Source of the DNA: a virus
Taxonomy: Duplodnaviria > Caudoviricetes
Reading direction: 5' to 3' (one strand)
Virus record (IMG/VR): IMGVR_UViG_3300005805_000156
Location: 1-43,345 of that record
Length of the DNA: 43,345 nucleotides
Position numbers and translations under genes: made by a program. Every line of letters starts with the position of its first letter. Position 1 is the first letter of the stretch. Of this stretch, positions 1,583-30,725 are shown in pieces. Under the pieces are notes generated by a model. It was given only the letters and a program-made list of their open reading frames with translations, had not been told where the DNA came from and ran no database searches.

Positions 1583-1603
1583 TTAAGTCATTTAATATAC
1601 ATT

Positions 1604-1634
1604 AATATGGGGCTCTCAGAGCCCCATATTTTTT
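1604..1634 (+). terminator. Rho-independent terminator
   Basis: 12-bp stem AATATGGGGCTC / GAGCCCCATATT followed by a T run, just after the LamG gene. Confidence 0.85.
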
Positions 1635-1663
1635 ATTGTTGATGACTAATTTTTCAATCTACT

Positions 1664-1693
1664 GTTTACATCTTGCGCGACTTGTGATAGAAT
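1664..1693 (+). promoter_or_regulatory. sigma70/T4-early-like promoter
   Basis: GTTTACA, 17-nt spacer, then TAGAAT preceded by TG (extended -10). Confidence 0.65.
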
Positions 1694-1748
1694 ACTCTTA
1701 TGGATTGATAAAAATCCTTAAATCTTATCCTACGTAGGAGATATTGAA

Positions 1749-2084
1749 ATGGAAAAGATTGATTTTGACAACCTAGCTAAACTGGCTTCCTCAAATCTGT
1801 TGGCATTTGAGGCAGAGCGCAGCAGGATTATCGGTGCTGCTCTGAGAGAGATTCCAGAGAAAAATCAGGCTGCATGCAGGGCCCTACAGGCAGAATTAGA
1901 CCGCACACGATCCAATATGTCCTCTGAAAAATTCTTGAAGCACCTTGCGGGTAGGCTTCAGGAAAATCTAGAGAACATGTCAGATGCCTGGGTTGCACTT
2001 GCTAATCAATGTGAGCAGTTCACCGAGAACAAACCTCTCCTGAATTCACTCAAGAAAGAAATCTCTAAGGATAACCCATCCTGA
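1749..2084 (+). CDS. DUF3135-like small helical protein
   Basis: Pattern DFD.L..LA.....FEAER..II...L...P...Q...RALQ..LD..R; AGGAG RBS. Confidence 0.6.
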   Translation: MEKIDFDNLAKLASSNLLAFEAERSRIIGAALREIPEKNQAACRALQAELDRTRSNMSSEKFLKHLAGRLQENLENMSDAWVALANQCEQFTENKPLLNSLKKEISKDNPS

Positions 2085-2117
2085 ATTTTTGAACGCGTAC
2101 TAAGAATAAATAAGGGT

Positions 2118-2197
2118 AGAGATTGCCATTCGGGATCTCTTTTTCTTGGATTGCCTTCCGGGATCCATTTTTAATTAACTTGCTTCAAAGAAGGAGT
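2118..2197 (+). promoter_or_regulatory. ROSE-like structured 5' UTR (RNA thermometer candidate) of hsp20
   Basis: Two hairpins share GATTGCC-N4-GGGATC. A third hairpin pairs ACTTGCTT with the SD sequence AAGGAGT, matching the ROSE U(U/C)GCU motif with a bulged G. Confidence 0.65.
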
Positions 2198-2203
2198 ACT
2201 ACC

Positions 2204-2638
2204 ATGACCTTACGTCCAGTTCTTCGTCCATTCCTCGCCTCACATGTGGGCTTTGATCGCCTGTTTGCAGAGTTAGATACTCTCCTTGATAAAGGCACCC
2301 CCGCACCTCCCTCATTCCCTCCATATAATATCTTCAAAGAAGGTGATTCCTATACTATTGAGCTCGCTGTGGCGGGATTCAAGCGGGAAGACATCAGGAT
2401 TGAGCATCTTAGATCAGAGAACACACTGATTGTCTCTGGAGAAAGTAAACCCAGACCCTCAAGCGAGAACAGAGAAATTATCAGGCAGGCTATAGCTAAT
2501 AGATCTTTCCGTCTATCATTTACCATTGCAGATGGAATAGAGGTCAAGACGGCATCTCTGGAAGATGGAATCTTAAAGATTTTCTTAGATTCAATCCAAA
2601 AAGAAGTAGAAAAACCACTGTTGATTGGAATCAATTAA
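2204..2638 (+). CDS. hsp20: small heat-shock protein Hsp20 (IbpA/B-like)
   Basis: Motifs GFDRLF, FPPYNI, IELAVAGF, IANRSF...F, A.LEDGIL.I. The ATG at 2204 follows AGGAG. Confidence 0.95.
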   Translation: MTLRPVLRPFLASHVGFDRLFAELDTLLDKGTPAPPSFPPYNIFKEGDSYTIELAVAGFKREDIRIEHLRSENTLIVSGESKPRPSSENREIIRQAIANRSFRLSFTIADGIEVKTASLEDGILKIFLDSIQKEVEKPLLIGIN

Positions 2639-2642
2639 AATC

Positions 2643-2667
2643 AAGGGCACCTATTAGGTGCCCTTTT
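2643..2667 (+). terminator. Rho-independent terminator
   Basis: AAGGGCACCTA-T-TAGGTGCCCTT followed by T residues. Confidence 0.8.
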
Positions 2668-2681
2668 AAATAAGGCAATCT

Positions 2682-3035
2682 ATGCGTGATATTTCTGTAG
2701 GAATCTGTAGATGGGAAGGCTTCAAGGATGCAGAACGTCTGTATGCTGTGAGTGGGTGTGGCGATCCTCAGAGCAGTCATGATATTTTTGTGTATGTCGA
2801 GCAGGTGGCGCCCTATGTAATAGTCTCAGTGCAAACAGAGGTTCACGCATCTGACTTTGGCTGTAAAAATTGGTTCACCAAGGCAGTGTGGAGACTGTAC
2901 GCTGCTGCTAGAATACTAATAAAGGGCAAAATTTCTACCAGTTCAGAATTCTATTTCATAGACCAGCAGGCAGCCCTAGACTATGCAGATGCAATAAAGC
3001 AATCTATTGAGAGAGTGAGCTTAGAGGTAGACTAG
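2682..3035 (+). CDS. hypothetical protein
   Basis: 117-aa ORF filling the gap between genes. Confidence 0.6.
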   Translation: MRDISVGICRWEGFKDAERLYAVSGCGDPQSSHDIFVYVEQVAPYVIVSVQTEVHASDFGCKNWFTKAVWRLYAAARILIKGKISTSSEFYFIDQQAALDYADAIKQSIERVSLEVD

Positions 3036-3107
3036 ACCTCTAAATTATAGTTTTGAAGTGTAGCACTGTTTGCTATAATAGCCTCTATTCAAACGTCAAA
3101 ACCTTAA

Positions 3108-3815
3108 ATGGAAACAGCCCAATCACTCACTGTTGAAACAGTTACAGGACATCAGGTAGATCCTCTAAACCCTGATCCGGCTACTATCAGCATACATGGA
3201 ATTGCTTGGTCACTGAGCAGAATTCCACGATTTGTTGGTCATACCATCACGGAGATACCCTATAACGTTGCGCAACACTCCATCTATGTATCCGAGCTGG
3301 CCGAGTTCATACTCACTGCACCGCCCGAAGCTTGCACTGAGGATGGAATAGCAGCAGACGTACTCCACAGAGCTAGAAGTGAGATAAAGGATCAAGACGT
3401 CGCGTGTGCGCTGCTCCTAGCACTACTGCATGATGGGCATGAAGCCTACATAGGTGATATTCCATCTCCCATCAAGAGAATACCAGAGATACGTACCACT
3501 CTCAAGGATATAGAGCGACGGCTTGATCTTGCAATTCGCAGCGCGGTGCTGCCTGTGGAATGCAGGTGCTCAATTGAATTTAAAGCCGAGAGAGAACTCT
3601 TCTTGGCATCTGCCCAGTCTCTCGTGGGTTACTGTGACAAACTTGCTCAGTCTATCGAGAGTTACCAATTCATGCCCTCTAGAGGAAAGAGTTGGAATCT
3701 ACCGCACCCGTCTCTCACTCTGTTGCAGAGATTTGTTCAACCTATGACACCACTGCAATCCTACAGATCTTTCTTGGAAAGATTTGAAAAGTTGCGAGCT
3801 CGAATAAATACATAG
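3108..3815 (+). CDS. HD-domain deoxynucleotide phosphohydrolase (YfbR/YfdR-like)
   Basis: IA.SLSR.PRF.GHT, YNVAQHS, LLHDGHEAYIGDIPSP.K and a later D (YCDK). A TGnTATAAT lies at 3071-3079. Confidence 0.85.
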   Translation: METAQSLTVETVTGHQVDPLNPDPATISIHGIAWSLSRIPRFVGHTITEIPYNVAQHSIYVSELAEFILTAPPEACTEDGIAADVLHRARSEIKDQDVACALLLALLHDGHEAYIGDIPSPIKRIPEIRTTLKDIERRLDLAIRSAVLPVECRCSIEFKAERELFLASAQSLVGYCDKLAQSIESYQFMPSRGKSWNLPHPSLTLLQRFVQPMTPLQSYRSFLERFEKLRARINT

Positions 3816-12380: not shown

Positions 12381-14339
12381 ATGAAGCTAACAGAAACTTT
12401 TAAACAATCCTTCGTCAAAAAGTTTTCAACACAGTCAGAGATGACTCTTCTAGAGTATCTAGACTTGTGCAAGACCGACAAGATGGCATATGCTAATGCA
12501 GCAGAGCGCATGCTAGCAGCAATTGGTGAACCACAGGTAATCGATACCTCGCGTGACAGTCGCCTCAGCCGTATTTTTTCAAATAAAAAGGTTCGCTTCT
12601 ATGAAGCATTCAAGGATTTCTACGGTGCCGAAGAATCCATAGAGCGAATGGTGGCCTACTTCAGGCACTTTGCACAGGGCTTGGAAGAATCCAAACAGAT
12701 TCTCTATCTCAAGGGCCCAGTTGGTGGTGGCAAGAGCTCTCTAGTCGAGCGTCTCAAAGAACTCATGCAGCAGCACCCAATCTATGTACTCAAGGATCCC
12801 AATGAAAAGAATCCAGAGTTGCAGATTTCACCACTGTTTGAGGGCCCACTCGGTCTCTTCAATCGCGCAGAGCATGGAGAAACGCTGCAAGAGGAATACG
12901 GTATCTCTCCCCGGTATTTAAACACTGTAAGTTCTGGCTGGGCACAACAAAAACTCCGTGAATTTAATGGCGATATAACTAAATTCTCTGTTGTTCGTAT
13001 CTATCCTAACAAAGATAGTCAAGTTGGCATTATGAAGGTAGAACCAGGCGACGAGAACAACCAAGACGTATCCGTTCTTATTGGTAAAACTGATATCCGC
13101 AAGCTGGAGCAGTTCCCCCAGAACCATCCATACAGTTATTCTTACTCTGGTGGTCTAAATCGCACCACCCAGGGAATGATGGATTTCGCTGAGATGTTTA
13201 AGGCAAATATTAAGACACTCAATCCTCTCTTGATGGCAACACAAGAACACAACTATAATGGAACCGAGAATATCCCAGCGATGCCTTTCACAGGAATTAT
13301 CTGCGCTCACAGCAATGAGGCAGAGTGGTTCAAATTCCGAAATGACAAGTCTAATGAGGCTTTCCTAGATCGCGTATATATCGTGAATGTTCCCTATTGC
13401 CTACGGGTATCTGAGGAACAGAAGATCTATGAAAAGATGCTAGTGTCCTCTTCACTCAAAGATGCTCCATGCGCTCCAGAAACTCTAAAATCTCTGGCAG
13501 AGTTCATGGTTCTTACTCGACTTCATGAGCCAGAGAACAGCACCATCTATGCCAAGATGAAAGTCTACAATGGTGAGAATGTTAAGGATACCATGCCCAT
13601 GGCCAAACCTTATGAAGAATATAAGGAAGCAGGTGGAGTAGACGAGGGTATGACTGGCTTGAGCACTCGATTTGGGTTCAAGATCATCTCTCAAACATTT
13701 AACCTACGTCCAGAAGAGGTACAGGCAAATCCTATTGATCTCATGTATGTGCTAGAAGAAGCTCTCAAGCGTGAACATCTACCTGCAGAAACCATGAGTG
13801 TGTACATGGATTTCATTAAGTCTTGGGTTCAACCTCGCTATCTAGAATTCATTGACAAGGAACTGCGTATCGCTTACCTAGAGAGCTACAGCGACTTTGG
13901 GCAGACCATGTTTGAGCGATATGTACTCTTTTCAGAGGCATGGTTAGATGATTCTACTGTTAGGGATCCAGAGACTCACACCCTGTTAAATCGTGAGAAT
14001 TTGAATTCCAAGCTGGAAGAGATTGAAAAATCTGCTGGCATTGTAAATGCCAAGGATTTCCGTAATGACATCGTTCACTATGTGCTCCGCAGCCGTGCCA
14101 AGAATGAAGGAAAGATGCCAGCCTGGAATTCCTATGAGAAAATCAAGGTTGTGATTGAAAAGAAAATGTTCGCCGCAACTGCTGAGATCATGCCAGTTGT
14201 CTCATTCAATCCTAAGGGTAGCAGTGAAGAACAGAAGAAACATGACGATTTCGTTGCACGCATGAGGACCAAGGGTTACACCGATCGTCAGATTAGAACT
14301 CTTGTTGATTATTGGATTAACAATAAAAAGAGCTCTTGA
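12381..14339 (+). CDS. prkA: PrkA/YeaG family AAA+ ATPase / serine kinase
   Basis: YANAAERMLAAIGEP, F.DFYG.EE, KQILYL.GPVGGGKSS (Walker A), EPGDENNQD.S.L.GK.DIRKLE, AHSNE.EW, EAFLDR, GVDEGM.GLSTRF.FK. Confidence 0.95.
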   Translation: MKLTETFKQSFVKKFSTQSEMTLLEYLDLCKTDKMAYANAAERMLAAIGEPQVIDTSRDSRLSRIFSNKKVRFYEAFKDFYGAEESIERMVAYFRHFAQGLEESKQILYLKGPVGGGKSSLVERLKELMQQHPIYVLKDPNEKNPELQISPLFEGPLGLFNRAEHGETLQEEYGISPRYLNTVSSGWAQQKLREFNGDITKFSVVRIYPNKDSQVGIMKVEPGDENNQDVSVLIGKTDIRKLEQFPQNHPYSYSYSGGLNRTTQGMMDFAEMFKANIKTLNPLLMATQEHNYNGTENIPAMPFTGIICAHSNEAEWFKFRNDKSNEAFLDRVYIVNVPYCLRVSEEQKIYEKMLVSSSLKDAPCAPETLKSLAEFMVLTRLHEPENSTIYAKMKVYNGENVKDTMPMAKPYEEYKEAGGVDEGMTGLSTRFGFKIISQTFNLRPEEVQANPIDLMYVLEEALKREHLPAETMSVYMDFIKSWVQPRYLEFIDKELRIAYLESYSDFGQTMFERYVLFSEAWLDDSTVRDPETHTLLNRENLNSKLEEIEKSAGIVNAKDFRNDIVHYVLRSRAKNEGKMPAWNSYEKIKVVIEKKMFAATAEIMPVVSFNPKGSSEEQKKHDDFVARMRTKGYTDRQIRTLVDYWINNKKSS

Positions 14340-14376
14340 GCAGGCTTGTGGATCTTTCTAAATACGGAGTAGAATA

Positions 14377-15702
14377 ATGGCATTTATCTTTATTGATAGA
14401 AGAAAAGCTGGAAAAGGCAAATCTACTTCAAATAGACAGAAATTGATCAAGCGCATCAAGAATTTCATTAAAGTTGCAGAACCAAAGAATATTGGTACTG
14501 GTGGTGTAAGTGGGACTGGTGTTGGTGCTAATAACACCAGTCCAATTAAAGTTAGTGCGGAAGCACTAGAAGAACCACATTTTCTCTACGCTGAAGGTGG
14601 GGAAGAGACCTTAGTATTCATTGGCAATTTTGAGTATGATCGTGGAGATGTCCTAGACTTTCCACAATCAAGCGCTAAATCCTCAAAGGCTGGACTTGGT
14701 GAAAATGGGGAAGATGATTTCATCGTCAACATCGCGCGTGATGAATTTTTAGATCTGTTCTTTGAAGACTGTGAACTACCCAATCTCTCCGCTGAGAAAT
14801 ACACGGAAAAATTGGATGTTATTCAACAACAAGCAGGATTTTCTACAACAGGCAATCCCGCGCAACTGAGCATTATTAGGACGTACAAACAATCTCTTGG
14901 TAGGCGTTGGGCAATCATGGGCCCCTACAAGGAAGAGCTCCGGGAGCTCAAAGAAGAATTAGAAGAGCTCACCAATAAGTATGGATCAGAACCATCTCAA
15001 GAGGAAGTACGGGCAAGAAAGGCTGAGATAGAAGAAAGAATCATGGCACTCCATCGTAAGATGAATGCTCTTGATTGTTTTGAAAATGCTGATCTACGGT
15101 ACAGAAAGAAAGAGGCCCGACCACTAAAAACTGTTGATGCTGTACTCATCATGAGCATGGATATCTCTGGGTCAATGGATGAGAACAAGAAGAAAATAGC
15201 TAGAAGGTGGTTTGCCTTGCTCTATGCATTCATCAAGAGACGCTATACAAATACTGAATTGGTTTTCATAGCGCATACAGAAGAAGCATTTGAGATGAAT
15301 GAACAAGATTTCTTCACTACCAAGATAAATGGAGGAACCAAGGTATCTGCTGCCCTAGAGCTCATCAACAACATTATCAAAGACCGATATGATACTGCCA
15401 CCACTAACATCTATGTATCCCACGCAAGTGATGGAGACAACTATGACAGTGACAATCCTGTAGTCAAGGACATACTCATAGGTGATGGGCATCTCATGAA
15501 TAAAATCCAATTTTTTAACTATGTTGAAGTAGGTTCACAGCGTGGCTGGCTGATCAGCAACGACAGTACCACTAATCTATGGGACACCTATGATGATGTA
15601 AGAAATGCTCAGCCCAAGAGAAAGGTAACTCTTTCTGTGATAGAACATGCCGAAGACTGCTATCCTATATTTAAGAGAGTTTTCAGAAAAGAAAATTCTT
15701 AA
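14377..15702 (+). CDS. yeaH: YeaH/YhbH (DUF444) vWA-domain protein
   Basis: FIDRR..GK.KS..NRQ, MIDAS MDISGSM, FI.HT..A.E, GGT.VS.AL, NIY..HASDGDN. Confidence 0.92.
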   Translation: MAFIFIDRRKAGKGKSTSNRQKLIKRIKNFIKVAEPKNIGTGGVSGTGVGANNTSPIKVSAEALEEPHFLYAEGGEETLVFIGNFEYDRGDVLDFPQSSAKSSKAGLGENGEDDFIVNIARDEFLDLFFEDCELPNLSAEKYTEKLDVIQQQAGFSTTGNPAQLSIIRTYKQSLGRRWAIMGPYKEELRELKEELEELTNKYGSEPSQEEVRARKAEIEERIMALHRKMNALDCFENADLRYRKKEARPLKTVDAVLIMSMDISGSMDENKKKIARRWFALLYAFIKRRYTNTELVFIAHTEEAFEMNEQDFFTTKINGGTKVSAALELINNIIKDRYDTATTNIYVSHASDGDNYDSDNPVVKDILIGDGHLMNKIQFFNYVEVGSQRGWLISNDSTTNLWDTYDDVRNAQPKRKVTLSVIEHAEDCYPIFKRVFRKENS

Positions 15703-15726
15703 AGACAGGAAACGAGAGGAAAACAA

Positions 15727-17217
15727 ATGTCACCATTAATAACTTCTAGGACAGACTGGACTCCTGAGCTTCTTCAGGAAATATGGGCCCACATAGAAGA
15801 CATAGCTAAAGGAGATCTGGGGCTAGATTACTACGATCCTCAGTTTGAAGTAATCTCCGCAGAGCAGATGATAGATGCATATGCGTCAGTTGGTATGCCA
15901 GTAAACTATCATCACTGGTCTTTTGGTAAAGATTTTACCAAGAACATGACCAAGTATCAAAAGGGTAGAATGGGTTTGGCATATGAGATAGTTGTTAATA
16001 CAGATCCATGCGTGTGCTACCTCATGGAGGAGAATAATGCTGTTACTCAGACTCTTGTCATGGCGCATGCGGCCGCCGGCCATTCGTTTGTTTTCAAGAA
16101 CAACTACATGTTCAAAGAATGGACCTCTGCAAGTTCTATTATTGACTACATGCTCTTTGCCAAGAATTACATACGTGACTGTGAGAGTCGGTATGGAGAA
16201 GAAGAGGTTGAACAAGTTCTTGATGCCGCACATGCTCTAAGCATTCATGGTGTTGATAAGCGTAAGCGCAGCTACAAGAAGAGGCTGAATGAAGAGGAAC
16301 GGGCTCGTCATGAATTGGAGAAGGCAGAGGACGAACAGCGAAATCTAGACATCATTCTCAAGAAAACTTCAGTTGTGGAAGAGCACGCGCAGAAAGAAGA
16401 AGATCTAGATTCAGTTGGTGATGAGGAGAATTTGATCTACTTCATCTACAAAAACGCACCAAATCTTCCACAGTGGAAGCGAGAAATTCTAAGAATAGTC
16501 TACAAAATTCAGCAGTATTTTTATCCTCAGGGCCAAACCAAAACCCTTAATGAAGGCATGGCCACATTTACTCACTTCTACATTATGGATGAGCTAGAAA
16601 AGAGAGGTCTCATCTCTGATGATGCTCAGTTGGCGTGGCTACACCTGCACTCAAATGTAATCTACCAGCCTGACATTACTAGCCGACACTATGATGGCTC
16701 ATTCAATCCGTACGCGCTTGGATTTGCAATCTTAAATGATGTTAGGCGCATCTGTGAGGATCCCACTGATGAAGATAGAGAATGGTTCCCACAGCTCGTT
16801 GGTGCAGATTGGCGGGAAGAGGTTAGAAATGCTGTAGCAGAGCACAGAGATGAGAGCTTTATTCAGCAGTATCTCAGCCCGACCCTGATTAGAAAGCTGA
16901 GAATGTTCTCGGTTGATGTTAAACAATCAACCGGGGTGGTGACAGAAATAAGTGATGATGTTGGCTACAGAAACATTAGAAACATCCTATCCAACTCCTA
17001 CAATTCAGTAAATAGAATTCCAGAAATTGTTGCCAAATCAGCTAAGATGAGAGGTGACAGAACGCTTACACTGGAATATATTCCTTTTAGAAATCGTGAT
17101 CTACACAATGCATACGCCAGTAAAACACTGAAGCATGTTAGGAATCTATGGGGATATCCAGTGGAAATAGTGCGGCAGGGAACGGCTAGCACCTATACCT
17201 ACATGAGTATTTCTTAA
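15727..17217 (+). CDS. spoVR: SpoVR/YcgB family protein
   Basis: EQMIDAYAS.GMP..Y.HWSFGK.F, GLAYEIV.N, LVMAHA..GH..FKNN, QYFYPQ.QTK..NEG.ATF.H, NPYALGF. Confidence 0.95.
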   Translation: MSPLITSRTDWTPELLQEIWAHIEDIAKGDLGLDYYDPQFEVISAEQMIDAYASVGMPVNYHHWSFGKDFTKNMTKYQKGRMGLAYEIVVNTDPCVCYLMEENNAVTQTLVMAHAAAGHSFVFKNNYMFKEWTSASSIIDYMLFAKNYIRDCESRYGEEEVEQVLDAAHALSIHGVDKRKRSYKKRLNEEERARHELEKAEDEQRNLDIILKKTSVVEEHAQKEEDLDSVGDEENLIYFIYKNAPNLPQWKREILRIVYKIQQYFYPQGQTKTLNEGMATFTHFYIMDELEKRGLISDDAQLAWLHLHSNVIYQPDITSRHYDGSFNPYALGFAILNDVRRICEDPTDEDREWFPQLVGADWREEVRNAVAEHRDESFIQQYLSPTLIRKLRMFSVDVKQSTGVVTEISDDVGYRNIRNILSNSYNSVNRIPEIVAKSAKMRGDRTLTLEYIPFRNRDLHNAYASKTLKHVRNLWGYPVEIVRQGTASTYTYMSIS

Positions 17218-17246: not shown

Positions 17247-18224
17247 GTGACAACATTTAAGCAATTTTTGAGGGAGGGAGGAGGTGCAACGCGGGTGTTC
17301 AATCCGTCTCGCGCTTCGGCTAGCGACATTACTGAGGCACTGCACTTTGCTTCTGGGTTAAAAACGCTTGGAATGTCTCCTCAAGAATTACGGGCATCTC
17401 TGCTTGGGTCTGCTGATGTGACTGCCTTGCACGCAGAAAAAGCTCTGACAAGTGGAGATGTAGATGTTGCTGTATCTGCGCCCTCTGACGATGAAGAGCT
17501 CAAGAGGCGCATGACTGAGGTATATGATGAAGCCGCTGCGCACCTGAAGAAGATCTACGCTGGCGATCCAGAGCACAGTGGTAAGAAGATTGGTGAAAAT
17601 AACTTTGGTACTCGGGTGGTGTCGCTGCCCGTACCACTCTTCAAGGATGGAGCCATACGTAAGATAGTTCAGCTGGATCTCATGTTTGTTAAGGATGTTG
17701 ACTGGGCAAAGTTCGCATACCATTCAGCGCAGCACCGCGAAGAGAATGGTTCAGCGTACAAGGGAGTAGTGAGAAATGTACTACTCATGAGCACCATAAT
17801 TCATCATAGAGAGCCAGGGAAAGATTTTGTACACTACGATCCAGAATCTGGAAACGTCATTGCTCGAGCCAGCAGGTCATTAAAGCTGGACTCTGGGATG
17901 GAGCGGTTGTTCAAGCTAGCGAAGCGCAGCAAGACGGGTAAATTTACCAAAGAACTGCAGAAAGTCAGCCCTCAAGATCTAGAAGCTTTCCTCAAAAATG
18001 CCGGATTGGACTATAAATTCTCACATGATCCGGATATCATCAGCGATCCAGATAAGCTGGCGCGGTTGTTGTTTGGCCGAGGAGTACGGGCAAAGGACAT
18101 AATGAGTGCTGAGGGTATCATAGAAAAAATACAGCACCTGCCAAACGCAAAAGAGATCCTTGATCATGCAGTTAAGGAGTTTGAAAAAGGTGGCATTCCT
18201 ATTCCTAAGGAGCTGAGCTCCTAA
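17247..18224 (+). CDS. Pol-beta-superfamily nucleotidyltransferase, possible head-internal protein
   Basis: LLGS...SGDVDVAV, third Asp in VQLDLM, YKG..RN; N-terminus (GTG) MTTFKQFLREGG. Confidence 0.7.
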   Translation: MTTFKQFLREGGGATRVFNPSRASASDITEALHFASGLKTLGMSPQELRASLLGSADVTALHAEKALTSGDVDVAVSAPSDDEELKRRMTEVYDEAAAHLKKIYAGDPEHSGKKIGENNFGTRVVSLPVPLFKDGAIRKIVQLDLMFVKDVDWAKFAYHSAQHREENGSAYKGVVRNVLLMSTIIHHREPGKDFVHYDPESGNVIARASRSLKLDSGMERLFKLAKRSKTGKFTKELQKVSPQDLEAFLKNAGLDYKFSHDPDIISDPDKLARLLFGRGVRAKDIMSAEGIIEKIQHLPNAKEILDHAVKEFEKGGIPIPKELSS

Positions 18225-18382
18225 CACCGTATCCTGCTACGCTTCAGTATTTTAAGTTCTCTCAGAGATTTAAATAATTTACAGCTTAAAACCCTTCAAG
18301 TTTTAAGCTGACTCTATCTATGATAAAATGCTCCTATACTCATAGGCTGCACCCGCACTCCCAATCACATATAGGAAATCAC

Positions 18383-19279
18383 ATGCCAAATTTTGAACTG
18401 CATCCAGCAATACAAGAAATTCGCCATGAATTTGCACGTCTGTTAAATGAGAAGCAATTCACTTCAGTAAATCGTGAATCATCAATGACAGGCCTGGTAG
18501 GCAGCAGTACTATTGAGATAGTTGGGGCATCATTCATTGCTAGTGAAGATTCTATCTTTGGCGAAGTAAATTGGGATTACGTTCAACGAGAAGAAGAATG
18601 GTATAATTCCATGGATAGATGCGTGCACAGCATCCCAGGTGGAGCTCCTCAAATCTGGCGAGCAGTTGCTGATCGCGATGGTATGATCAACAGCAACTAT
18701 GGCTGGGCTATCTATTCACCTGAGAATGGATTTATTCCAGATATCAATATCCAATCATGGAGAACCACTGCACAGCGAGATCGTGCCGAAAAAACCATGA
18801 CCACGTGGACAGAAGGTTTCTACTCAATGACTGAAATAATCGAGCTGTACGCATCATCTCAATATTCACGCGTGCTGGAAGAGCTGAAGAAAAATCCAGA
18901 ATCTCGACGAGCAGTCATGATCTATACCCGTCCTTCCATGTGGTTAGACTACAATAAAAATGGTCGCTCAGACTTCATGTGCACTAACACCGTCCAATAT
19001 CTACAGCGTGGTGGTAAACTGCACGCAATCGTACAGATGCGTAGCAATGATGCCATTTTCGGATACAGAAATGACAGAGCATGGCAGGCCCATGTTCTAC
19101 AGAAGCTCTCAGATGAGCTGGGTGTAGAGCCTGGAATTATTCATTGGCAAGTAGGTTCACTTCACGTTTACGCTCGGCACTACTATCTAGTAGATCACTA
19201 TGTAAATACGGGATCAATCAACATTACCAAACAAGAATATATGGAGCGGTATCCCGATTCTCCATACGCTTCAATCTAA
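18383..19279 (+). CDS. gp42: dCMP hydroxymethylase (T4 gp42-like, thymidylate synthase fold)
   Basis: INSNYGWAI, NPESRRAVMIYTRPSM..DYNK.G.SDFMCTNTVQY, MRSND.IFGYRND.AWQ and GSLHVY.RH. These are near-identical to the T4 gp42 motifs I recall, including the dCMP-specifying Asp. Confidence 0.93.
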   Translation: MPNFELHPAIQEIRHEFARLLNEKQFTSVNRESSMTGLVGSSTIEIVGASFIASEDSIFGEVNWDYVQREEEWYNSMDRCVHSIPGGAPQIWRAVADRDGMINSNYGWAIYSPENGFIPDINIQSWRTTAQRDRAEKTMTTWTEGFYSMTEIIELYASSQYSRVLEELKKNPESRRAVMIYTRPSMWLDYNKNGRSDFMCTNTVQYLQRGGKLHAIVQMRSNDAIFGYRNDRAWQAHVLQKLSDELGVEPGIIHWQVGSLHVYARHYYLVDHYVNTGSINITKQEYMERYPDSPYASI

Positions 19280-21706: not shown

Positions 21707-22285
21707 ATGACCAAAGATTTTTCTACTCCTAGAGTTTTTATTATCGAAGGATTGGACCGTCTAGGAAAATCCACTCTCATAGAAGGTATCTTAGATGTAG
21801 GTGGTTTCTACCAAGTTATTCATTTTCAGAAACCAAAATTACTGAGCGCCTACCAAGAGAGCGCCATGAGCCGAGCAGATGCACTCTTCAAATATCAGAA
21901 GAGATCTTTTGAAACCTTGTTTGAAATGGTGAATTCAAATGGATATTTTATCTTCGATCGGGCGCACCTTGGTGAATTTGTTTACTCCCCACTTTATCGT
22001 AACTATGGTGGTGATTATGTTTTTGATCTTGAGCATATTTTTTATGTTGACATGAGGGCAGATGTACGACTGATTCTGCTCACAGAAGATTTATCTAAGA
22101 GCACTCATTTTGAAGATGATGGCCTGTCATTTGATATTACCAAGCGTGAGCAGGAGCAGCAGCTGTTTTTACAGGCATTTGACCGATCGGTCATTAGAGA
22201 TAAAAGAAAGATCTGTGTGACGGGCGCAGATGGTCATTTCAAACCCAAAGAAATAATTCTACAGGAAGCTCTTAAGAACAAATAA
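21707..22285 (+). CDS. thymidylate-kinase-like dNMP kinase
   Basis: P-loop IIEGLDRLGKST; FDRAHLGE.VY..LYR. Confidence 0.85.
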   Translation: MTKDFSTPRVFIIEGLDRLGKSTLIEGILDVGGFYQVIHFQKPKLLSAYQESAMSRADALFKYQKRSFETLFEMVNSNGYFIFDRAHLGEFVYSPLYRNYGGDYVFDLEHIFYVDMRADVRLILLTEDLSKSTHFEDDGLSFDITKREQEQQLFLQAFDRSVIRDKRKICVTGADGHFKPKEIILQEALKNK

Positions 22286-22296
22286 GGGAAGTGAAT

Positions 22297-23415
22297 ATGA
22301 AAGTAGCCGTTATTAAATTAGGATCACGCATCTCGTTCAATTCTAATGATACAAGCGGTGGAAATGGAGAAGCCCGCTCTATCATCAAGATGCTGCATCA
22401 AGGTGGTGCAACTGTTCAGATCTACACCAAGATTCTTAAGAAGGATACACTGATTCCGGACTATGAGTGGTTCGATCTGAGTGATCCCACCACTCTCTCA
22501 GATGGTGTTAGGGCAGATGCTCTAGTTGTTCTCAATGGAAATGTGAACTTCTTCGGCGGGGCTGAAGATCCAGAGCAGCTGCTTAACTATGTAGTTATTA
22601 ACCAATTCAAAGGCCCGGTGTTCTATATTCTCTGTGATCCAGAGCTCACTCTCAAACAGGTCTGGCCTTCGGTTGAAAAGAAGAGCTGGGCAGCTAATTG
22701 GTTACAGACAGACCTACTCATCACTCGAGATGACATAGTCTACATAAGTCAGCCACATGATGTGGAAAAAGTAGTTGCTTCACTGGGTAAGAATGAAATC
22801 AGACCAGCAAAAATCATTCACTATCCATTTGAAAAATTCCCGTGTCTAAATGAGCGCCTACCTTTCAATCCATCGCCAAGCGTGGATCTGTCGTACGGTG
22901 GAACCATGCGGGGCGGCAAGCGGCTCAAGAAGATGGTTAAATTCTACTTTGGTCATCCATCTCACATTTCTGTAGAAATGTTTGGAAAAATAACTGAGGA
23001 AGATTTTGATACCAAGCACACATTTGGTCTACGAGCACCCACATTTACAGGAGTGGTCAAATACGCTGACATGCTGCCCAAGATGAATGATGCCATGAGC
23101 CACTGCGTGATTGGAGATCCTTGGTATGAAGAGATCAATGATATGGCTCAGCGCTGCTACGAGAGCATTTGGTCTTCAGTTGTAACTTTTGTAGACGCAG
23201 ATCTTGATACTCTTCGCAGAGTCTATGGAGCAGACAAACAGTTGGCTGATTTTCTATATGTAAGTGACAGATTGGAGCTCTCAGAAAAAATAGAGCTGCT
23301 ACGCTGTTCTCCAGAGATCAGACAACAGATTGTGGAGGCTCAGTTTGACGCCATCAATTTCAATGCTAAGAGCTACTGTCAGGCATTTGTGAACATGTTG
23401 TGTGATAGGCGCTAG
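22297..23415 (+). CDS. bgt: DNA beta-glycosyltransferase (T4 BGT-like, GT-B)
   Basis: Colinear with T4 BGT as I recall it: MK.A.I..G, E (GEAR), N..NFFGG, catalytic Asp (YILCD), Q.WP.V....W, YGG..R.G.R..KM..F, AP.FTG, IGD..Y, R..E, YV..R.EL. Confidence 0.9.
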   Translation: MKVAVIKLGSRISFNSNDTSGGNGEARSIIKMLHQGGATVQIYTKILKKDTLIPDYEWFDLSDPTTLSDGVRADALVVLNGNVNFFGGAEDPEQLLNYVVINQFKGPVFYILCDPELTLKQVWPSVEKKSWAANWLQTDLLITRDDIVYISQPHDVEKVVASLGKNEIRPAKIIHYPFEKFPCLNERLPFNPSPSVDLSYGGTMRGGKRLKKMVKFYFGHPSHISVEMFGKITEEDFDTKHTFGLRAPTFTGVVKYADMLPKMNDAMSHCVIGDPWYEEINDMAQRCYESIWSSVVTFVDADLDTLRRVYGADKQLADFLYVSDRLELSEKIELLRCSPEIRQQIVEAQFDAINFNAKSYCQAFVNMLCDRR

Positions 23416-23508
23416 ATCTAGGTTATAATTCAGATTTATTGAGAATGATATTTCTGTAAATACCTCGGGCCCGGAATTTAAAGTATTACGTCTAAGAGGA
23501 GATAGATT

Positions 23509-25398
23509 ATGAACATTGTGATATTATCAGGTGGAACTGGTTCAATTGCTCTACAGAGAGGACTCTATGGTCTCTTAGACAGCTCTCAAGATGGTGTATC
23601 TACCAAGATATTAACTAACGCATACGATAATGGACTTTCCACTGGAGCAGTGCGTAAGGTATGCGGTGGGCACATCCTAGGACCAAGTGATGTGCGAAAG
23701 AATCAAACCACACGCTTAAAACTTGAAAAGCCAAATTCTCCATGGGCAAAATTTTTAGATATACGCTTTACTGTAGAGACGCAGGCTGCCAAAGATTACT
23801 GCCTTGAGAAGATAGCAGAACTTGAACATGATCTTCAAGCATACGCCGATGTTTCAGACAGGCACTCACTGGTTAAGAAAGTGTCAAACACTGCTCTACT
23901 GCGAGAAGCCGTAGAGCAGTTCTTCAAGCAACAGGTGGCATCAAAAATAGACTACAACGATTTTTCACTTGCCAATATTATCTACGCCGGATTTGCATCC
24001 GCAAATAAGAATTCTCTTCGTCAGGCGGCCACCATCATGGCTGGTTTAATGGGAATCAGTGATAATGTTATAGTCAATGATGACCGATCTCTATTCTTGG
24101 GCGCCACCACGAAGAGTGGCATACGAGTAACCGATGAGGGAGATATTGTATCTTGGGGTCAGATCCATGATCCATTCGTAGACATATTCTTCACAGATGC
24201 CTCCGGAGAACCTGCGCGGCCTGTACTGTGCGCTGAGGCCGAGGCTGCACTGAGCCGAGCAGATCTCATTATTCTTTCATCAGGAACTCAATGGTCATCC
24301 CTCATACCCACCTATGCATCAGAGGGTTTCAAGCAGGCCATTGAGAGAAGTTCAGCAAAGATTCTCATGGTCATGAATCGGCAGCCGGACAAGGATAGCC
24401 CAGGACAGAGCGCCAGTGATATTATCAAGCTGCTGGTTCCAAAATATTTCCCAGAAGGACGCATTAGGGTTATTCTTGATTCTACCTCAGATGACCAAAT
24501 GTCATCCCTAGATGATGAGGCACTCTCTCTTGTGCAGAGCGCCGATACCTTTGTACTAGGTGATGATTTTGCTAGAAATAAAACTCTTCACAATGCTGAT
24601 GCACTTGCCAGAGCGGTTGCTCTCACTTATTTTAAAGAATATGTTGATTCTGAGGCATTCATCTTCGATTATGATGACACTCTTATTGGACGAGGCAATC
24701 ACATGCCACGTTCTTCCATCTTGAACAAGTCACTGCTCGCTCGTCTAATCAAAAGAGATGTTAATATTTCTATCTGCACTGGTAATTCAATCAAGGCTAT
24801 AAACCTAAGAAGCACACCAATAGGACAAGAGGTATTACAGATACCAGTATTTGCAGATGGAGGCGTCAATGAGTACTACTACACTCTAAATTCCTCAGAT
24901 GATCCAGATCTTCCGGCATATGAATTTCGTAGAATTATAAATGAAGCGTGTCGCATACACCCAACCGAAATTGAAGGAATACTGAACGCTCTGGTAAATC
25001 ATGGAATTCCTATGATGAAGATTGAAAATAGAGGTGGTGTCATGCTGAGCATCAAACCCATAATTGAAGAATACAGGTCAGCGGTTTTGAGCTTGATAAA
25101 ATTCATCATAGCTGGAACAGATTTGGTGGCACACGCAACTGGTCGAACAACTATCGATATTCACAGTAAAAATCTTTCTAAACAGCACACGGTTAGACAC
25201 GCTCTAACTTCTATAAAAGGACAGCTTACATTTATTGGCGATGAATTTAGACCTGGTGGAAATGATAATCCCGTCAAACAGATGTTCAATCCTAGAGTAG
25301 CGTGTCTAGCCGTTAAAGATCCAGCGGAGACCTCTTTCTTCTTAAAGACTCTGCTCATCAAGAACAATGCCCCGGCAGCACTTCAATCACTAGTATGA
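23509..25398 (+). CDS. fusion: CofD/YvcK (UPF0052)-like transferase + HAD-IIB (phosphomannomutase/Cof-like) phosphatase
   Basis: N-terminal half: IVILSGGTG, YDNG.STG, GPSDVR, ADLIIL..GT..SSLIP. C-terminal half: FDYDDTL, CTGNS, G.TTIDI....K, FIGDEF.PGGND. Confidence 0.85.
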   Translation: MNIVILSGGTGSIALQRGLYGLLDSSQDGVSTKILTNAYDNGLSTGAVRKVCGGHILGPSDVRKNQTTRLKLEKPNSPWAKFLDIRFTVETQAAKDYCLEKIAELEHDLQAYADVSDRHSLVKKVSNTALLREAVEQFFKQQVASKIDYNDFSLANIIYAGFASANKNSLRQAATIMAGLMGISDNVIVNDDRSLFLGATTKSGIRVTDEGDIVSWGQIHDPFVDIFFTDASGEPARPVLCAEAEAALSRADLIILSSGTQWSSLIPTYASEGFKQAIERSSAKILMVMNRQPDKDSPGQSASDIIKLLVPKYFPEGRIRVILDSTSDDQMSSLDDEALSLVQSADTFVLGDDFARNKTLHNADALARAVALTYFKEYVDSEAFIFDYDDTLIGRGNHMPRSSILNKSLLARLIKRDVNISICTGNSIKAINLRSTPIGQEVLQIPVFADGGVNEYYYTLNSSDDPDLPAYEFRRIINEACRIHPTEIEGILNALVNHGIPMMKIENRGGVMLSIKPIIEEYRSAVLSLIKFIIAGTDLVAHATGRTTIDIHSKNLSKQHTVRHALTSIKGQLTFIGDEFRPGGNDNPVKQMFNPRVACLAVKDPAETSFFLKTLLIKNNAPAALQSLV

Positions 25399-26177
25399 AA
25401 TCAACAGATCTATATATTATTGCAGCTGGGAAGGGGTCTCGTATGGGAGGCTCCATCCCCAAAGCCCTGGTTCCTATCAATCCTGGCGAGCCTAATCTAA
25501 CAACCACGTTGAAGCAGGTGGGTCACGCATTTGAAACAGTCTATGTGGTGACAAATAACCTGATTCAAGATCAGTGGTCAGAATACTTTAATGGCATTGG
25601 ATCATTGGGAAGGAATGTGCATAATGTACCAATCTCTTCTGGATTAGGAGATGGTCATGCTATTCATCAAGCATTTCAGTGCGTGCAGCAACACCAGGGT
25701 GAGATTGTTATTTGTTGGGGAGATGTATTCATTCAACATGCGGAAATAGTGGATGAGCTGCTCTCTAGAGAGATGAACTCCACGAGTGGCTTGCTGCCAG
25801 CTGTTAGGGAACAGAATCCATACGTAAGCCTACTGGTTGATTCATCCATGCACTGCACAAGCGCTGATTTTTCAAAATATGGTGAATCACACCCATCAGG
25901 ATTCCACGATCAGTCCATATTCAGGTTCAATAAAACCTATATAGCACGAGCTCTAAAGGATCTACACGCTGCATTCTGGAAAGGTGGTCGTTACATTACA
26001 CCAGGTGGTGAGCTCTCACTCCTGCACGCATTTCATTATCTATATAATGTGGGTGAGCCTCTTCAGGTATATGAAACAGATTATCCCACTCTAAGCTTTA
26101 ATACTCCTGAAGAAGTTGCACAAATTCAAGCAGAAATTAATAAAAAATGGAATCTTGGTGAACGTAATGAAGTATAA
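25395..26177 (+). CDS. NTP-sugar pyrophosphorylase-like nucleotidyltransferase (GlmU-N/MobA fold)
   Basis: IIAAGKGSRMGG.IPKALVP, G.G.A, CWGD, FNT.EE; ATGA-coupled to the upstream fusion. Confidence 0.88.
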   Translation: MKSTDLYIIAAGKGSRMGGSIPKALVPINPGEPNLTTTLKQVGHAFETVYVVTNNLIQDQWSEYFNGIGSLGRNVHNVPISSGLGDGHAIHQAFQCVQQHQGEIVICWGDVFIQHAEIVDELLSREMNSTSGLLPAVREQNPYVSLLVDSSMHCTSADFSKYGESHPSGFHDQSIFRFNKTYIARALKDLHAAFWKGGRYITPGGELSLLHAFHYLYNVGEPLQVYETDYPTLSFNTPEEVAQIQAEINKKWNLGERNEV

Positions 26178-26328
26178 TAGCCTAGTAAAATACATGCATT
26201 CTTCTAAGATAAAGTTGGCATTCTGTATTCTAGCGATGGTGTTTCTACCTGTTTCTATTCTGGTGATACTGTGCTACCTCTTCTATGAGGTGTTTAGAGA
26301 CGTTTATAGAAGCCACTCGCGCAAATAA
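26167..26328 (+). CDS. small membrane protein
   Basis: 53 aa with one long hydrophobic stretch; fills the operon gap. Confidence 0.5.
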   Translation: MKYNSLVKYMHSSKIKLAFCILAMVFLPVSILVILCYLFYEVFRDVYRSHSRK

Positions 26329-26341
26329 TTTGGAGATGATC

Positions 26342-27025
26342 ATGACACATAAACCAGTATTAGTTACACTAACAGCCCCCACATCAGCAGGCAAGAGCCA
26401 CCTATTAAATTATATCAGAGATGTGGCAGCTCTGCCCTGCTTGGTTAGCACCACCACTCGTTCCCCTCGAGCAGGTGAGCGTGAGGGTGTTGATTACTTC
26501 TTTATCAGTGAAGAGCGCTCACGAGAGATTGAAGAAGCTGATGGATTTGCCGAGTTGGCACTGTATGGTGGTGTGCGATATGGTGTTACTCGAGATGAAT
26601 TAGCCAAGAAACTATCAAGTGGATTAACATTCCTAATTGTTGAACCAAGCGGTATCGACAGTTATGTGGCTCCCGCCTTAGAAATGGGGGCGCTTCATCT
26701 AAAGTATTTCATACACACAGAATTAGAAACACGAATCCAAAGATTTAAAGATCGCATACTAGCTGATATTGAGCGTGATTTTTCAAAAGACCTCTCTGTG
26801 CAGAGCACTGTGGCTGCAGTATCTCAAACAGTCTCCAAACATGTTGATCGTCTGGTTTCCATGACCACAGTTGAATCACAGTGGGGTGACGCACACCATT
26901 GGGATAGAACTCTGTTTGGAAAATCTGATCCAGCAGAGAATCTGGCCATTATCTTGAAAGACGTACAGCGCATTCTTAAAGAAGATGCTGAAAGAACAGC
27001 TTGGATAATTGCACGAGCAAACTAA
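26342..27025 (+). CDS. gmk: guanylate-kinase-like NMP kinase
   Basis: TAPTSAGKS, VSTTTRSPRAGEREGVDYFFIS, E...Y.G..YG; GGAG RBS. Confidence 0.85.
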   Translation: MTHKPVLVTLTAPTSAGKSHLLNYIRDVAALPCLVSTTTRSPRAGEREGVDYFFISEERSREIEEADGFAELALYGGVRYGVTRDELAKKLSSGLTFLIVEPSGIDSYVAPALEMGALHLKYFIHTELETRIQRFKDRILADIERDFSKDLSVQSTVAAVSQTVSKHVDRLVSMTTVESQWGDAHHWDRTLFGKSDPAENLAIILKDVQRILKEDAERTAWIIARAN

Positions 27026-27047
27026 CTACTTTTAAATGGAGGCATAC

Positions 27048-27473
27048 ATGGATAACCAAGTAACTTTTTGGCCAGCAGACATTGAGGACATGCACGCTAA
27101 ATTTGGGGTTAATCCGGTAGTAGATAGACTCACTGATTCTCAACTACGCGATTACTTAAAATTTCGCCTAGACATGGTGAGAGAAGAAGTAGATGAAGCC
27201 CATGCAGCATTCTCTAACAAGGATGCCGATGGTGTAGTTGATGCTCTAATAGATGGTATAGTCTTTGCCATAGGAACGCTTGATGCTTTTGGTGTAGATG
27301 CATATACCGCATGGAATCGAGTGCACGCTGCCAATATGAGTAAGAATCCAGGCGTTAAGCCCGGTCGTCCAAATCCGTATGGTTTCCCAGACTTGATTAA
27401 ACCAGAAGGTTGGGAGCCACCCTCTCATCTAGATAATCTTGGAATGATTCCTAGAGCTCTAGATGTAAAATAA
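27048..27473 (+). CDS. MazG-like/PRA-PH all-alpha NTP pyrophosphohydrolase
   Basis: EE.DE, DALID...FA.G, AW.RVH.ANMSK, KPEGW.PP; GGAGG RBS. Confidence 0.85.
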   Translation: MDNQVTFWPADIEDMHAKFGVNPVVDRLTDSQLRDYLKFRLDMVREEVDEAHAAFSNKDADGVVDALIDGIVFAIGTLDAFGVDAYTAWNRVHAANMSKNPGVKPGRPNPYGFPDLIKPEGWEPPSHLDNLGMIPRALDVK

Positions 27474-29472: not shown

Positions 29473-29576
29473 CCTATTAAAATGAACTACAGCAGAATGG
29501 AGAACTTGAGCTCTCCGTTCTGCTTTCTACTAATAAATAGATAGTAGTATTCATACCTGCATTGAGAGAATGGCTC

Positions 29577-30725
29577 ATGAAACTTAAAGAATTATTTGAA
29601 GGAAAACTAGGCTTTAATCCAACATCTAGTAGTCTAGATTCTGAGACTGAGCTAAAAGAAAATAGCCAAGCTGACGAGACACGAGATGTGCTACTTGAAG
29701 GTGGATGGGCTAGCACGGTTACGCAATCAACCAAGCTGTTTCCGCACATTGCTAGAGCCGCCGCTGAAATCATGCGTGATAAGTTTGAACGAGACTTTAA
29801 CAAGTTCTTAAAATCTGAGCGTGAACAACCAATCAAGATTGGTAAGACCGTTGGTTCTAGTGCGTACTTTCACAGGGATTCAATCGCTTCACCAACCAAA
29901 GAATACGGCGACATAGACATCATCTTTACAATTCCACGGCTACAAGGAACCTCTGTGGAGAAGAACAAGACGCACTACCAAGAGTTGGTTAAGGCTTTCA
30001 TCAATGAAAAGCGGCCAGAGTATGTCTTTAAGCCTGAGGGTTCAGCTCTAGCGGGTGCGGCAGTAATAGTTAAAGTTGGCGATGAATGGGTGCAGGTTGA
30101 TCTCATAACCACGTTCACAGAGCTTGAGGATTGGACCACGCATCGAATGACACCTGAGCATGGATTAAAGGGAGCTCTCCTTGGATTCATGTACAGTGCC
30201 CTTGCTGAAACACTCAATCTTAGTATAGGTGGAATGGGAGTTCAAGCCAAGCACTCCGGGGATATGCTGGTACCATTTAAGAAACAAAAAGTCGATCACG
30301 TTGATACAGTATCAACTGATTTTGGTAAATTTATTCACCACATATTTGATTATTTCTATAATAGAGCGCGTACCGATGCGGGACAGACTGCTGTACCCAG
30401 CAAACCAAAGATACCAACCGCACTACAGAAGAATCCCGGAATGAAAAGGGATGATATTAAGGCCAGTGATCTAGCTGCAAGCATTAGAGCTCTAGCCCGG
30501 GCATTCAGTGCAAATAATATGTTTGGGCACGGCGATTTAAAACATATTAGCAATGAACATGATTTTTTGCGCCAGATAAAACACTCGTATGAAGAGAAAA
30601 TATCCAAGGCAATAGGTGCTACCAAATTTGATAAAGCAGAGACTGAGAGCGCGCGGGCGCGGGCTGAGGCAACTAAGGACACTCTTCGCTCAAAATCCAC
30701 AGAGCTCATGAATTTATTGACATAA
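29577..30725 (+). CDS. Pol-beta-superfamily nucleotidyltransferase, possible head-internal protein
   Basis: VGSS...EYGDIDII, VQVDL, LKG. The N-terminus is MKLKELFE with LLEGG further in. AATAAATA lies at 29532-29539. Confidence 0.7.
   Translation: MKLKELFEGKLGFNPTSSSLDSETELKENSQADETRDVLLEGGWASTVTQSTKLFPHIARAAAEIMRDKFERDFNKFLKSEREQPIKIGKTVGSSAYFHRDSIASPTKEYGDIDIIFTIPRLQGTSVEKNKTHYQELVKAFINEKRPEYVFKPEGSALAGAAVIVKVGDEWVQVDLITTFTELEDWTTHRMTPEHGLKGALLGFMYSALAETLNLSIGGMGVQAKHSGDMLVPFKKQKVDHVDTVSTDFGKFIHHIFDYFYNRARTDAGQTAVPSKPKIPTALQKNPGMKRDDIKASDLAASIRALARAFSANNMFGHGDLKHISNEHDFLRQIKHSYEEKISKAIGATKFDKAETESARARAEATKDTLRSKSTELMNLLT

Follow-up and report, generated by a model that had tools for sequence, protein, structure and literature searches.

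A YvcK/CofD-fold domain as a candidate sugar-phosphate kinase in a putative 5-hydroxymethylcytosine glycosylation cluster of jumbo phages

Which reaction does a phage protein that joins a YvcK/CofD-fold domain to a HAD-IIB domain carry out, and for which pathway? The question was raised by the IMG/VR virus record IMGVR_UViG_3300005805_000156 (Duplodnaviria; Caudoviricetes), a jumbo-phage fragment whose positions 1 to 43,345 made up the window, that is, the whole 43-kb stretch of DNA analysed here, and whose relatives sit on complete or near-complete phage genomes of 343-462 kb. The fusion (629 aa) was encoded at 23509-25398 on the plus strand, as were the genes of its cluster. The reading reached, with a probability of roughly 0.5, is that the cluster glycosylates 5-hydroxymethylcytosine (5hmC) by means of a cassette that makes its own nucleoside diphosphate (NDP)-sugar donor, with the YvcK-like domain as the kinase. 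Such a system would work like the glucosylation of T4 DNA, with a donor route of the type described for RB69 or for phage contig 53.

The fusion was present as a first-pass annotation, made from the letters alone, had described it. The YvcK/CofD-fold domain spanned residues 1-375 (23509..24633) and the HAD-IIB domain followed at 24634..25398. Regular expressions placed GGTG at residue 8, D.G.STG at 40, SDVR at 60 and SSLIP at 263, and, in the second domain, DYDDT at 387, CTGN at 423, K558 and GDE...GGND at 577. Pfam gave matches to CofD (E 3e-17, 63.2 bits vs a cut-off of 30), Hydrolase_3 (8e-5, 22.9 vs 20.9 bits) and phosphomannomutase (PMM; PF03332, 0.0037), the first two over their cut-offs and the last below (17.5 vs 22.4 bits). 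Both folds were present in an AlphaFold2 model built from 120 homologues (predicted local distance difference test, pLDDT, 94.3; predicted template modelling score 0.93). Among 7995 candidates scored, 406 homologues of the fusion were found at E<=0.001, so the architecture is not due to chance. Translational coupling to the next gene, an NTP-transferase (25395..26177, 260 aa), was confirmed as an ATGA overlap at 25395-25398. PHROGs held no family for either protein.

Upstream of the fusion, and outside the argument of the first-pass annotation, lay an orthologue of T4 gp42, the dCMP hydroxymethylase (18320..19279; Pfam Thymidylat_synt 4e-14), together with a helicase gene, a thymidylate-kinase-like dNMP kinase that is likely to act on hydroxymethyl-dCMP (21707..22285; phrog_761 3.8e-10) and a T4 beta-glucosyltransferase (BGT) homologue of a distinct clade (22291..23415; T4 BGT 1bgt E 1e-33; Pfam T4-Gluco-transf 65.4 vs 27 bits). 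A MazG-like NTP pyrophosphatase, the likely dCTPase of the hydroxymethylcytosine pathway, was found at 27036..27473 (phrog_671 1.6e-21; PRA-PH 1.5e-9). The signature of the hydroxymethylases relative to ThyA is L143D/E, N177D, the catalytic Cys and a retained D169, while D169N marks 5-hydroxy-dCMP synthases (PMC13326640). T4 gp42 residues D145, C148, D171 and D179 were kept in 25/25 family sequences and D169 was likewise D in 25/25; the window synthase was therefore assigned as a dCMP hydroxymethylase, and a 5-hydroxy-dCMP synthase was ruled out. The gp42 orthologue would fix the acceptor as 5hmC, provided that it has the activity its residues predict.

The BGT homologue kept D100, R191, R195 and R269 in 38/38 sequences, as well as E22 and, mostly, E272. 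It deviated from T4 at S67 (G in 38/38), N215 (K in 35/38) and L268 (Q in 37/38). A residue other than T at 267 combined with Q at 268 was present in 43/45 cassette-linked and 2/2 isomerase-linked enzymes, while T267 was present in 8/12 enzymes with neither cassette nor isomerase. Residues T267, L268 and S67 presumably line the sugar pocket. Kinship can explain part of the 267/268 pattern, and the shifts suggest a donor other than UDP-glucose. The window thus resembles T4 in its gp42 signature, in the catalytic D100 and in the phosphate-binding arginines, but differs in these BGT positions and in linking a donor cassette to the enzyme, whereas T4 takes UDP-glucose from its host. As a separate observation, a complete 154-kb genome (L218, G003) carried a BGT of the cassette clade and gave no match for the fusion or the NTP-transferase; its BGT has T267 like T4, as if it were back on the host donor.

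The NTP-transferase was closest to GlmU by profile (E 1e-22, positions 2-246 of 249) and by fold (model pLDDT 95.1; GlmU as best folds, template modelling score 0.76-0.83), and matched Pfam NTP_transf_3 (4e-12). It has the G-x-G-x-R-x6-K loop, the GD metal motif and a full sugar-binding subdomain; G12, R16, K23 and W108-G109-D110 were invariant in 46/46 sequences. Profile, model and conservation in 99 sequences describe a GlmU-like sugar-1-phosphate nucleotidyltransferase in which both the base and the sugar pockets are altered. The sugar pocket differs from that of GlmU at T82 (to D), E154 (to S) and N169 (to D), in a GlmU numbering that we partly assume. At the position of the uracil-binding Gln (Q76 of Haemophilus influenzae GlmU; PMC10128056) enzymes from phage, soil and gut have I80 (93-100%), while the Gln is kept in 88% of the enzymes of the GT2 group. 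No match to CofC was found in Pfam or NCBIfam at E<=0.05.

The three domains recurred together well beyond the window. Queries with the fusion gave 37 viral and 73 metagenome loci, and the 80 best of 112 genome loci were taken up with them; the BGT gave 53 loci and a divergent sub-clade 30. Groups were assigned by hand, duplicates were dropped, and the counts cover loci flanked by at least 3 kb on both sides (phage 34/57, gut 8/15, soil 5/16, giant-virus 6/14, GT2-type 53/77 and plasmid 1/1 kept). An NTP-transferase lay within 6 kb in 33/34 phage, 8/8 gut, 5/5 soil, 6/6 giant-virus, 52/53 GT2-type and 0/1 plasmid loci, and a HAD was nearby in 33/34, 8/8, 5/5, 6/6, 48/53 and 0/1 of them, respectively; the phage locus scored as HAD-less (L259, the same as L235) shows HAD motifs by eye. 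The BGT was near in 34/34 phage loci and the dNMP kinase in 25/34.

The order of the domains varied: YvcK-HAD plus nucleotidyltransferase (NTase) in the window, YvcK plus HAD-NTase (L216), HAD-NTase plus YvcK-GT2 (L169), NTase-YvcK-GT2 (L122) and, on giant-virus contigs (L084 at 1382-3721; L272-L289), a YvcK-HAD-NTase triple fusion in a single polypeptide of about 775 aa. The cassette occurred in phages, giant viruses, bacteria and one archaeon, mostly beside glycosyltransferases (GTs) that are unrelated to one another: BGT, GT1, GT2 with GtrA and GT-C, GT8, Wzx/TagF and Fringe-like. GT2-type copies came from Bdellovibrionota, Acidobacteriota, Magnetococcales, Patescibacteria, one actinomycete, one Woesearchaeote and others. 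Among the neighbours scanned with Pfam/NCBIfam no kinase family recurred; single kinases were HldE-like (L169), GHMP (L185) and APS-kinase-like (L058). Because of this conservation of the locus and the likeness to GlmU, the module was defined as YvcK-like domain, HAD and sugar-1-phosphate nucleotidyltransferase, with the downstream guanylate-kinase-like gene (gmk) as a bystander. Probably the cassette is a sugar-donor module, and an NDP-sugar donor pathway is the simplest reading of it. The proposal of the first-pass annotation that the fusion makes a sugar-1-phosphate, which the NTP-transferase activates for the BGT, was borne out to this extent by gene context in phages, giant viruses and bacteria.

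What, then, does the YvcK-like domain contribute? Residues 1-372 of the fusion matched YvcK structures best (2o2z, Z 31.1, root-mean-square deviation (rmsd) 2.3, 292 residues aligned), ahead of CofD/FbiA (Z 20.6-22.1, identity 12-16%); comparison with CofD and GlmR had been proposed at first pass, and it placed the domain in the YvcK/CofD fold, nearer to YvcK. By profile and by fold the domain belongs to the CofD/UPF0052 superfamily (PF01933), and it scored below the cut-offs for YvcK/GlmR (TIGR01826, 61.6 vs 196 bits) and for GAK-system CofD-like proteins (TIGR04357, 45.5 vs 340 bits). The F420 CofD model was absent among the 4 NCBIfam families matching the fusion at E<=0.05. With YvcK/GlmR the domain shares the GGTG loop, the first catalytic Asp and a PxD-R motif besides the fold, but it has a long helical insertion, an Asn for the second Asp and the HAD fusion, and it stands in a glycan-donor context, whereas GlmR stands in a yvcJ-glmR operon. 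With CofD/FbiA and CofC/FbiD it shares the superfold and the two-aspartate metal site, but its partner is GlmU-like and no F420 gene was seen among the neighbours scanned. Identity as an F420 CofD/FbiA was rejected on the nearer fold of YvcK and on the partner, which matches GlmU and not CofC.

Conservation in 168 domains left 38 positions conserved at 90% or more, and GGxG, D40, D61 and the basic R49, R63, K64 and R86 were each kept in at least 158 of them. From their motif position D40 and D61 would be the two-aspartate pair of FbiA, a CofD-type phospho-lactyl transferase in which the two aspartates hold the metal and a sugar-alcohol hydroxyl attacks the beta-phosphate of the nucleotide (PMC8498797). 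This FbiA-like chemistry and the conserved loop, aspartates and basic residues make kinase chemistry plausible. Mutation of D40, D41 or N198 abolishes the activity of Listeria monocytogenes GlmR (PMC10128056); in an alignment to 2HZB, with the place of N198 inferred, the window keeps D40 and has N41 and T268. Position 41 is D in 93/168 and N in 62/168 domains, and position 268 is T or S in 167/168. APH-like, GHMP and PfkB kinases were absent from the Pfam matches and from the top folds listed for the domain; the claim is that it works like the anomeric sugar kinases, not that it belongs to those families. In the ESM Atlas only CofD-named clusters and one giant-virus cluster were seen, and searches of plasmids gave one close copy and otherwise distant matches, several of them annotated as GAK-type.

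The assignment of the domain to the slot of an anomeric kinase, to which we give even odds, came from precedent, replacement and co-occurrence. In contig 53, a HAD/APH-kinase fusion, a CTP transferase and a T4-BGT-like GT give mono- and di-heptosyl-hmC in Escherichia coli; all three genes are required, and no isomerase is named in the part of the preprint concerned (10.1101/2023.12.21.572611). The window shares with it a kinase-slot/HAD fusion, a nucleotidyltransferase and a T4-BGT-like GT-B acting on 5hmC, but the HAD partner there is an APH-like kinase and here a YvcK/CofD-fold domain, and contig 53 came from a screen of methylase/TET-type clusters, whereas the hmC of the window would come from gp42. 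Phages RB69, DLP3 and HY126 use an isomerase, a kinase, a HAD and an NTase for UDP-arabinose (PMC13326640). They too make their own NDP-sugar through a HAD and an NTase, but they have 5-hydroxycytosine (D169N, against D169 in the window), an APH-type kinase, an isomerase and other GTs, while the window has neither an isomerase nor an APH kinase.

Replacement was seen in two relatives, L217/G001 (87% complete) and L219/G002 (complete), which preserve the gene order synthase-helicase-dNMP kinase-BGT-gmk but lack the cassette. About 8-10 kb further on, both carry a SIS isomerase and an NTase-kinase, the latter 34% identical to RB69 ORF052c/053c, so that genes of RB69 type stand in for a cassette of the window type. 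Their BGTs nest within the cassette-linked clade in a quick tree. Conversely, among large cassette phages the RB69-type NTase-kinase was found in 0/5, a SIS isomerase in 1/5 and away from the cluster, and GmhA in 0/4 with L235 as the positive control. Co-occurrence came from L108 and L235, which add a GmhA-like isomerase. The YvcK-like domain of L108 is intact beside it (34/38 conserved positions kept, end branch 0.32) and hence is not itself the isomerase; in the layout of the heptose and arabinose pathways, isomerase, X, HAD and NTase, X is the kinase. L166 and L183 lack the usual HAD and carry a GmhB-like one; GmhB as a HAD substitute was downgraded, since a HAD-NTase fusion is encoded on a different contig of the L166 genome.

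The pathway proposed for the window would run as follows. The gp42 orthologue, the dNMP kinase and the MazG-like dCTPase would put 5hmC into the DNA, an activity predicted from the signature residues. The YvcK/CofD-fold domain may then, with a chance that we put at one in two, phosphorylate the anomeric hydroxyl of a host sugar-omega-phosphate, the GGTG loop and the D40/D61 metal site moving a phosphate from a nucleotide in the manner of the CofD/FbiA attack. The fused HAD, judged by its fold, would strip the distal phosphate and leave a sugar-1-phosphate, from which the GlmU-like enzyme would make the NDP-sugar. The BGT homologue, with its catalytic residues in place, would transfer the sugar to hmC, and the modification would be likely to shield the DNA from nucleases.

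Several points weigh against this pathway. Kinase activity is unreported for the YvcK/CofD fold in the sources on GlmR and CofD/FbiA compared here. The search by which the cassette was scored absent from L217 and L219 lacked a positive control. The evidence for replacement comes from these two phages, which are sisters and whose BGTs share a long stem (0.91), and no AfhF-type HAD was seen beside their isomerase and NTase-kinase genes; a search of both genomes for HAD-IIB gave 0/2, AfhF being another type of HAD. The two GmhA loci form one clade (support 92) and therefore count as one event, and the domain of L235 may be decaying (branch 4.9, 29/38 positions kept). The GmhB-like HAD of L166 is weak support because of the HAD-NTase fusion elsewhere in that genome. 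The 34/34 count of BGT is partly built in, since the BGT query itself led to at least 6 of these phage loci. L036 has no adjacent NTP-transferase and L194 stands alone, and the role of the BGT pocket residues is assumed. Lastly, the HAD itself is closest to phosphomannomutases and alpha-phosphoglucomutases (alpha-PGM), its basic cap is kept and the HAD of the bacterial partners is beta-PGM-like; with the HAD as a mutase, a kinase is unnecessary.

This last point leads to the strongest alternative, which was considered possible but unlikely. Here the HAD is a phosphomutase that shifts the omega-phosphate to position 1, and the YvcK-like domain alters the sugar skeleton as an epimerase or isomerase, with either the sugar phosphate or the NDP-sugar as its substrate and perhaps with NAD bound. 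The HAD domain has the motifs of subfamily IIB (DxDxT, T/S, K and GD...D) and its C2 cap fold, scores below the cut-off of TIGR01484 (17.7 vs 41.8) and keeps D387, D389, T391, G545 and K558 in 84/84 sequences; it was annotated as a predicted sugar-bisphosphate phosphatase or mutase. Residues 380-620 matched phosphomannomutases (Z 17.9, rmsd 3.7, 213 residues aligned); with alpha-PGM the nearest folds spanned Z 17.6-17.9, and a trehalose-phosphatase-like fold (Z 17.0) was level with them. Conservation of the basic cap residues (R508 in 80/84, K/R516 in 83/84, R/K523 in 83/84) fits a mutase, as does the HAD-IA of the bacterial partners, nearest to the beta-PGM family (TIGR02009, below cut-off). 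The YvcK structure 2O2Z contains NAD (PMC13046274), and other phage DNA GTs are partnered by epimerases (10.1101/2023.12.21.572611). An isomerase role is opposed by the intact domain beside the GmhA-like isomerase of L108, by the retention of the two-Asp metal site and the GGTG loop, which are typical of phosphoryl chemistry, and by the replacing cassette of G001 and G002, which includes a kinase.

It was held improbable that the cassette merely boosts an ordinary donor, UDP-glucose or similar, through a PMM/PGM-like mutase and a pyrophosphorylase, the product being plain glucosyl-hmC and the YvcK-like domain serving as an accessory nucleotidyltransferase of GlmR type or as a sugar-nucleotide sensor. 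YvcK is indeed the closest fold, GlmR is a uridylyltransferase in vitro that makes UDP-GlcNAc (PMC10128056), and the BGT keeps E22, D100, R191, R195, R269 and mostly E272 of T4. However, D40 is the only one of the three residues essential to GlmR that the window retains, a second nucleotidyltransferase beside the GlmU-like one would be redundant, and the activity of GlmR in cells has been questioned (10.64898/2026.06.23.733835). The NTase also lacks the sugar residues that we take to be those of GlmU, and the BGT residues shift with the cassette.

The first-pass annotation had also placed a gmk-like gene close behind the NTP-transferase. A guanylate-kinase gene is there (26342..27025; PDB guanylate kinases E 2e-11; Pfam Guanylate_kin 6e-12, 46.1 vs 25.2 bits; TIGR03263 below cut-off), with a P-loop and a GMP-binding subdomain, but it is not coupled, and a hydrophobic 53-aa ORF without a Pfam match (26167..26328), not a member of the module, lies between. 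The 246-aa open reading frame of gmk opens at 26285, and its start is probably 26342, behind a GGAG site. Among loci with 3-kb flanks gmk was near in 16/34 phage and 0/73 non-phage loci, and it persists in the cassette-less L217 and L219; it is a clade-specific bystander and not part of the cassette. The remaining route was dismissed as very unlikely. In it, NDP-X comes from the NTase, X-phosphate is passed by the CofD-like domain to a hydroxyl on the sugar or on glycosylated DNA with release of GMP, the HAD trims and gmk recycles the GMP. In its favour are the superfold and the two aspartates shared with CofD/FbiA, the adjacent gmk in the window's clade and the presence of TagF-type and phosphonate genes close to some of the gut copies. 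Against it, the NTase is GlmU-like and not CofC-like, the domain is nearer to YvcK, gmk follows one clade of phages, a known NDP-sugar pathway replaces the cassette in two relatives and most cassette phages have a single DNA glycosyltransferase nearby.

With fair confidence, the sugar is not glucose. A pentose such as arabinose or ribose is a tentative first choice, glucose and another hexose or a ketose are each somewhat less likely than that, and a heptose comes last as an unlikely candidate. Arabinose is suggested by the replacement by RB69-type genes; heptose is suggested by the GmhA sub-clade, whose changes at T45 and S60 are consistent with a larger substrate; and copies in giant viruses and an archaeon suggest a universal substrate. 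The sub-clade in question (L037, L103, L104, L106, L108 and L235), which contains both GmhA loci, is alone in changing two residues next to the metal site: T45 differs in all six, and S60 is G in five and falls in a gap in L235. Searches of 3 incomplete genomes from the T45/S60-variant clade or its sister, and of one giant-virus bin, gave no GmhA. The only species names recovered from cluster look-ups were Segatella hominis and Enterocloster citroniae, neither with a known glycan that points to a sugar.

The likely novelty is the YvcK/CofD-fold domain as the predicted kinase of an NDP-sugar cassette. The wider reading, which we hold tentatively and at somewhat less than even odds, is that the fold includes a new class of anomeric sugar-phosphate kinases, that the cassette is portable and that the window's phage places a non-glucose sugar on hmC, a base not described in the literature compared here. 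If true, the superfamily, in which the function of the main member YvcK/GlmR is still debated, would gain a third chemistry. A widespread clade of jumbo phages would be predicted to have a new glycosylated base, with a bearing on escape from restriction enzymes and CRISPR, and an unrecognised NDP-sugar route would be indicated for giant-virus glycosylation clusters and for the surface-glycan loci of bacteria from gut, soil and aquatic habitats. Pathways of similar layout have already been reconstituted in E. coli with nucleoside LC-MS, and an isolated phage carries the same genes. In this phage, Ralstonia phage RsoM2USA (ORF1, ORF2, ORF6, ORF10 and ORF486), the synthase, kinase, BGT and fusion are present and the transferase spans the join of the linear record; the ORFs of the cluster are 'hypothetical' in GenBank, and ORF2 is named a beta-glucosyltransferase in its paper (PMC8504454). 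Word searches found neither 'CofD' nor 'digest' in that paper, neither CofD nor YvcK in a jumbo-phage review (PMC7824862) and no CofD in PMC13326640. No description of the cassette was found in openly licensed PMC papers and bioRxiv preprints, subscription papers and supplements lying outside the scope.

Other features were noted at the cassette loci. Soil bacterial copies (L045, L054, L056 and L113) stood beside a GT1 (EryCIII-like) and fell inside the window's phage clade in a quick tree, with about 50% identity, which suggests phage-bacterium exchange. A SAM methyltransferase lay between the BGT and the fusion in several phages (L019, L021, L028 and L271) and also beside the cassette in bacteria, including many GT2-type loci; the sugar of the cassette may be methylated. 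Some giant-virus triple fusions were near Fringe-like GTs, methyltransferases or a capsid-protein-like ORF, and a scan of giant-virus single proteins found nothing. The lone copy on an Acaryochloris plasmid (L194:11983-14174) faces a CAP12/Pycsar-type TIR protein and has no HAD or NTase nearby. A second sugar cluster with an NTP-transferase and a HAD was seen in G006 (L257:3778-6349), and in G009 (L258) an arabinose-5-P-isomerase-like gene stood beside a KdsB-like gene, the latter identified by eye.

No tRNA gene was found in the whole window. A promoter scan gave 18 sites, and since shuffled sequences gave 14.4 +/- 4.5, a site at 23402-23429 was not significant. Two proteins encoded at 17247-18224 and 29562-30725 had no Pfam or PHROG match and, by eye, a GS...DxD pattern, which we take to resemble that of Pol-beta nucleotidyltransferases; the gene at 17247-18224 is conserved upstream of the gp42 orthologue across the clade. 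PrkA/YeaG, DUF444 and SpoVR genes stood in a row at 12381-17217, a PrkA-family gene being present in RsoM2USA as well, and a YfbR-like HD 5'-deoxynucleotidase was encoded at 3108-3815.

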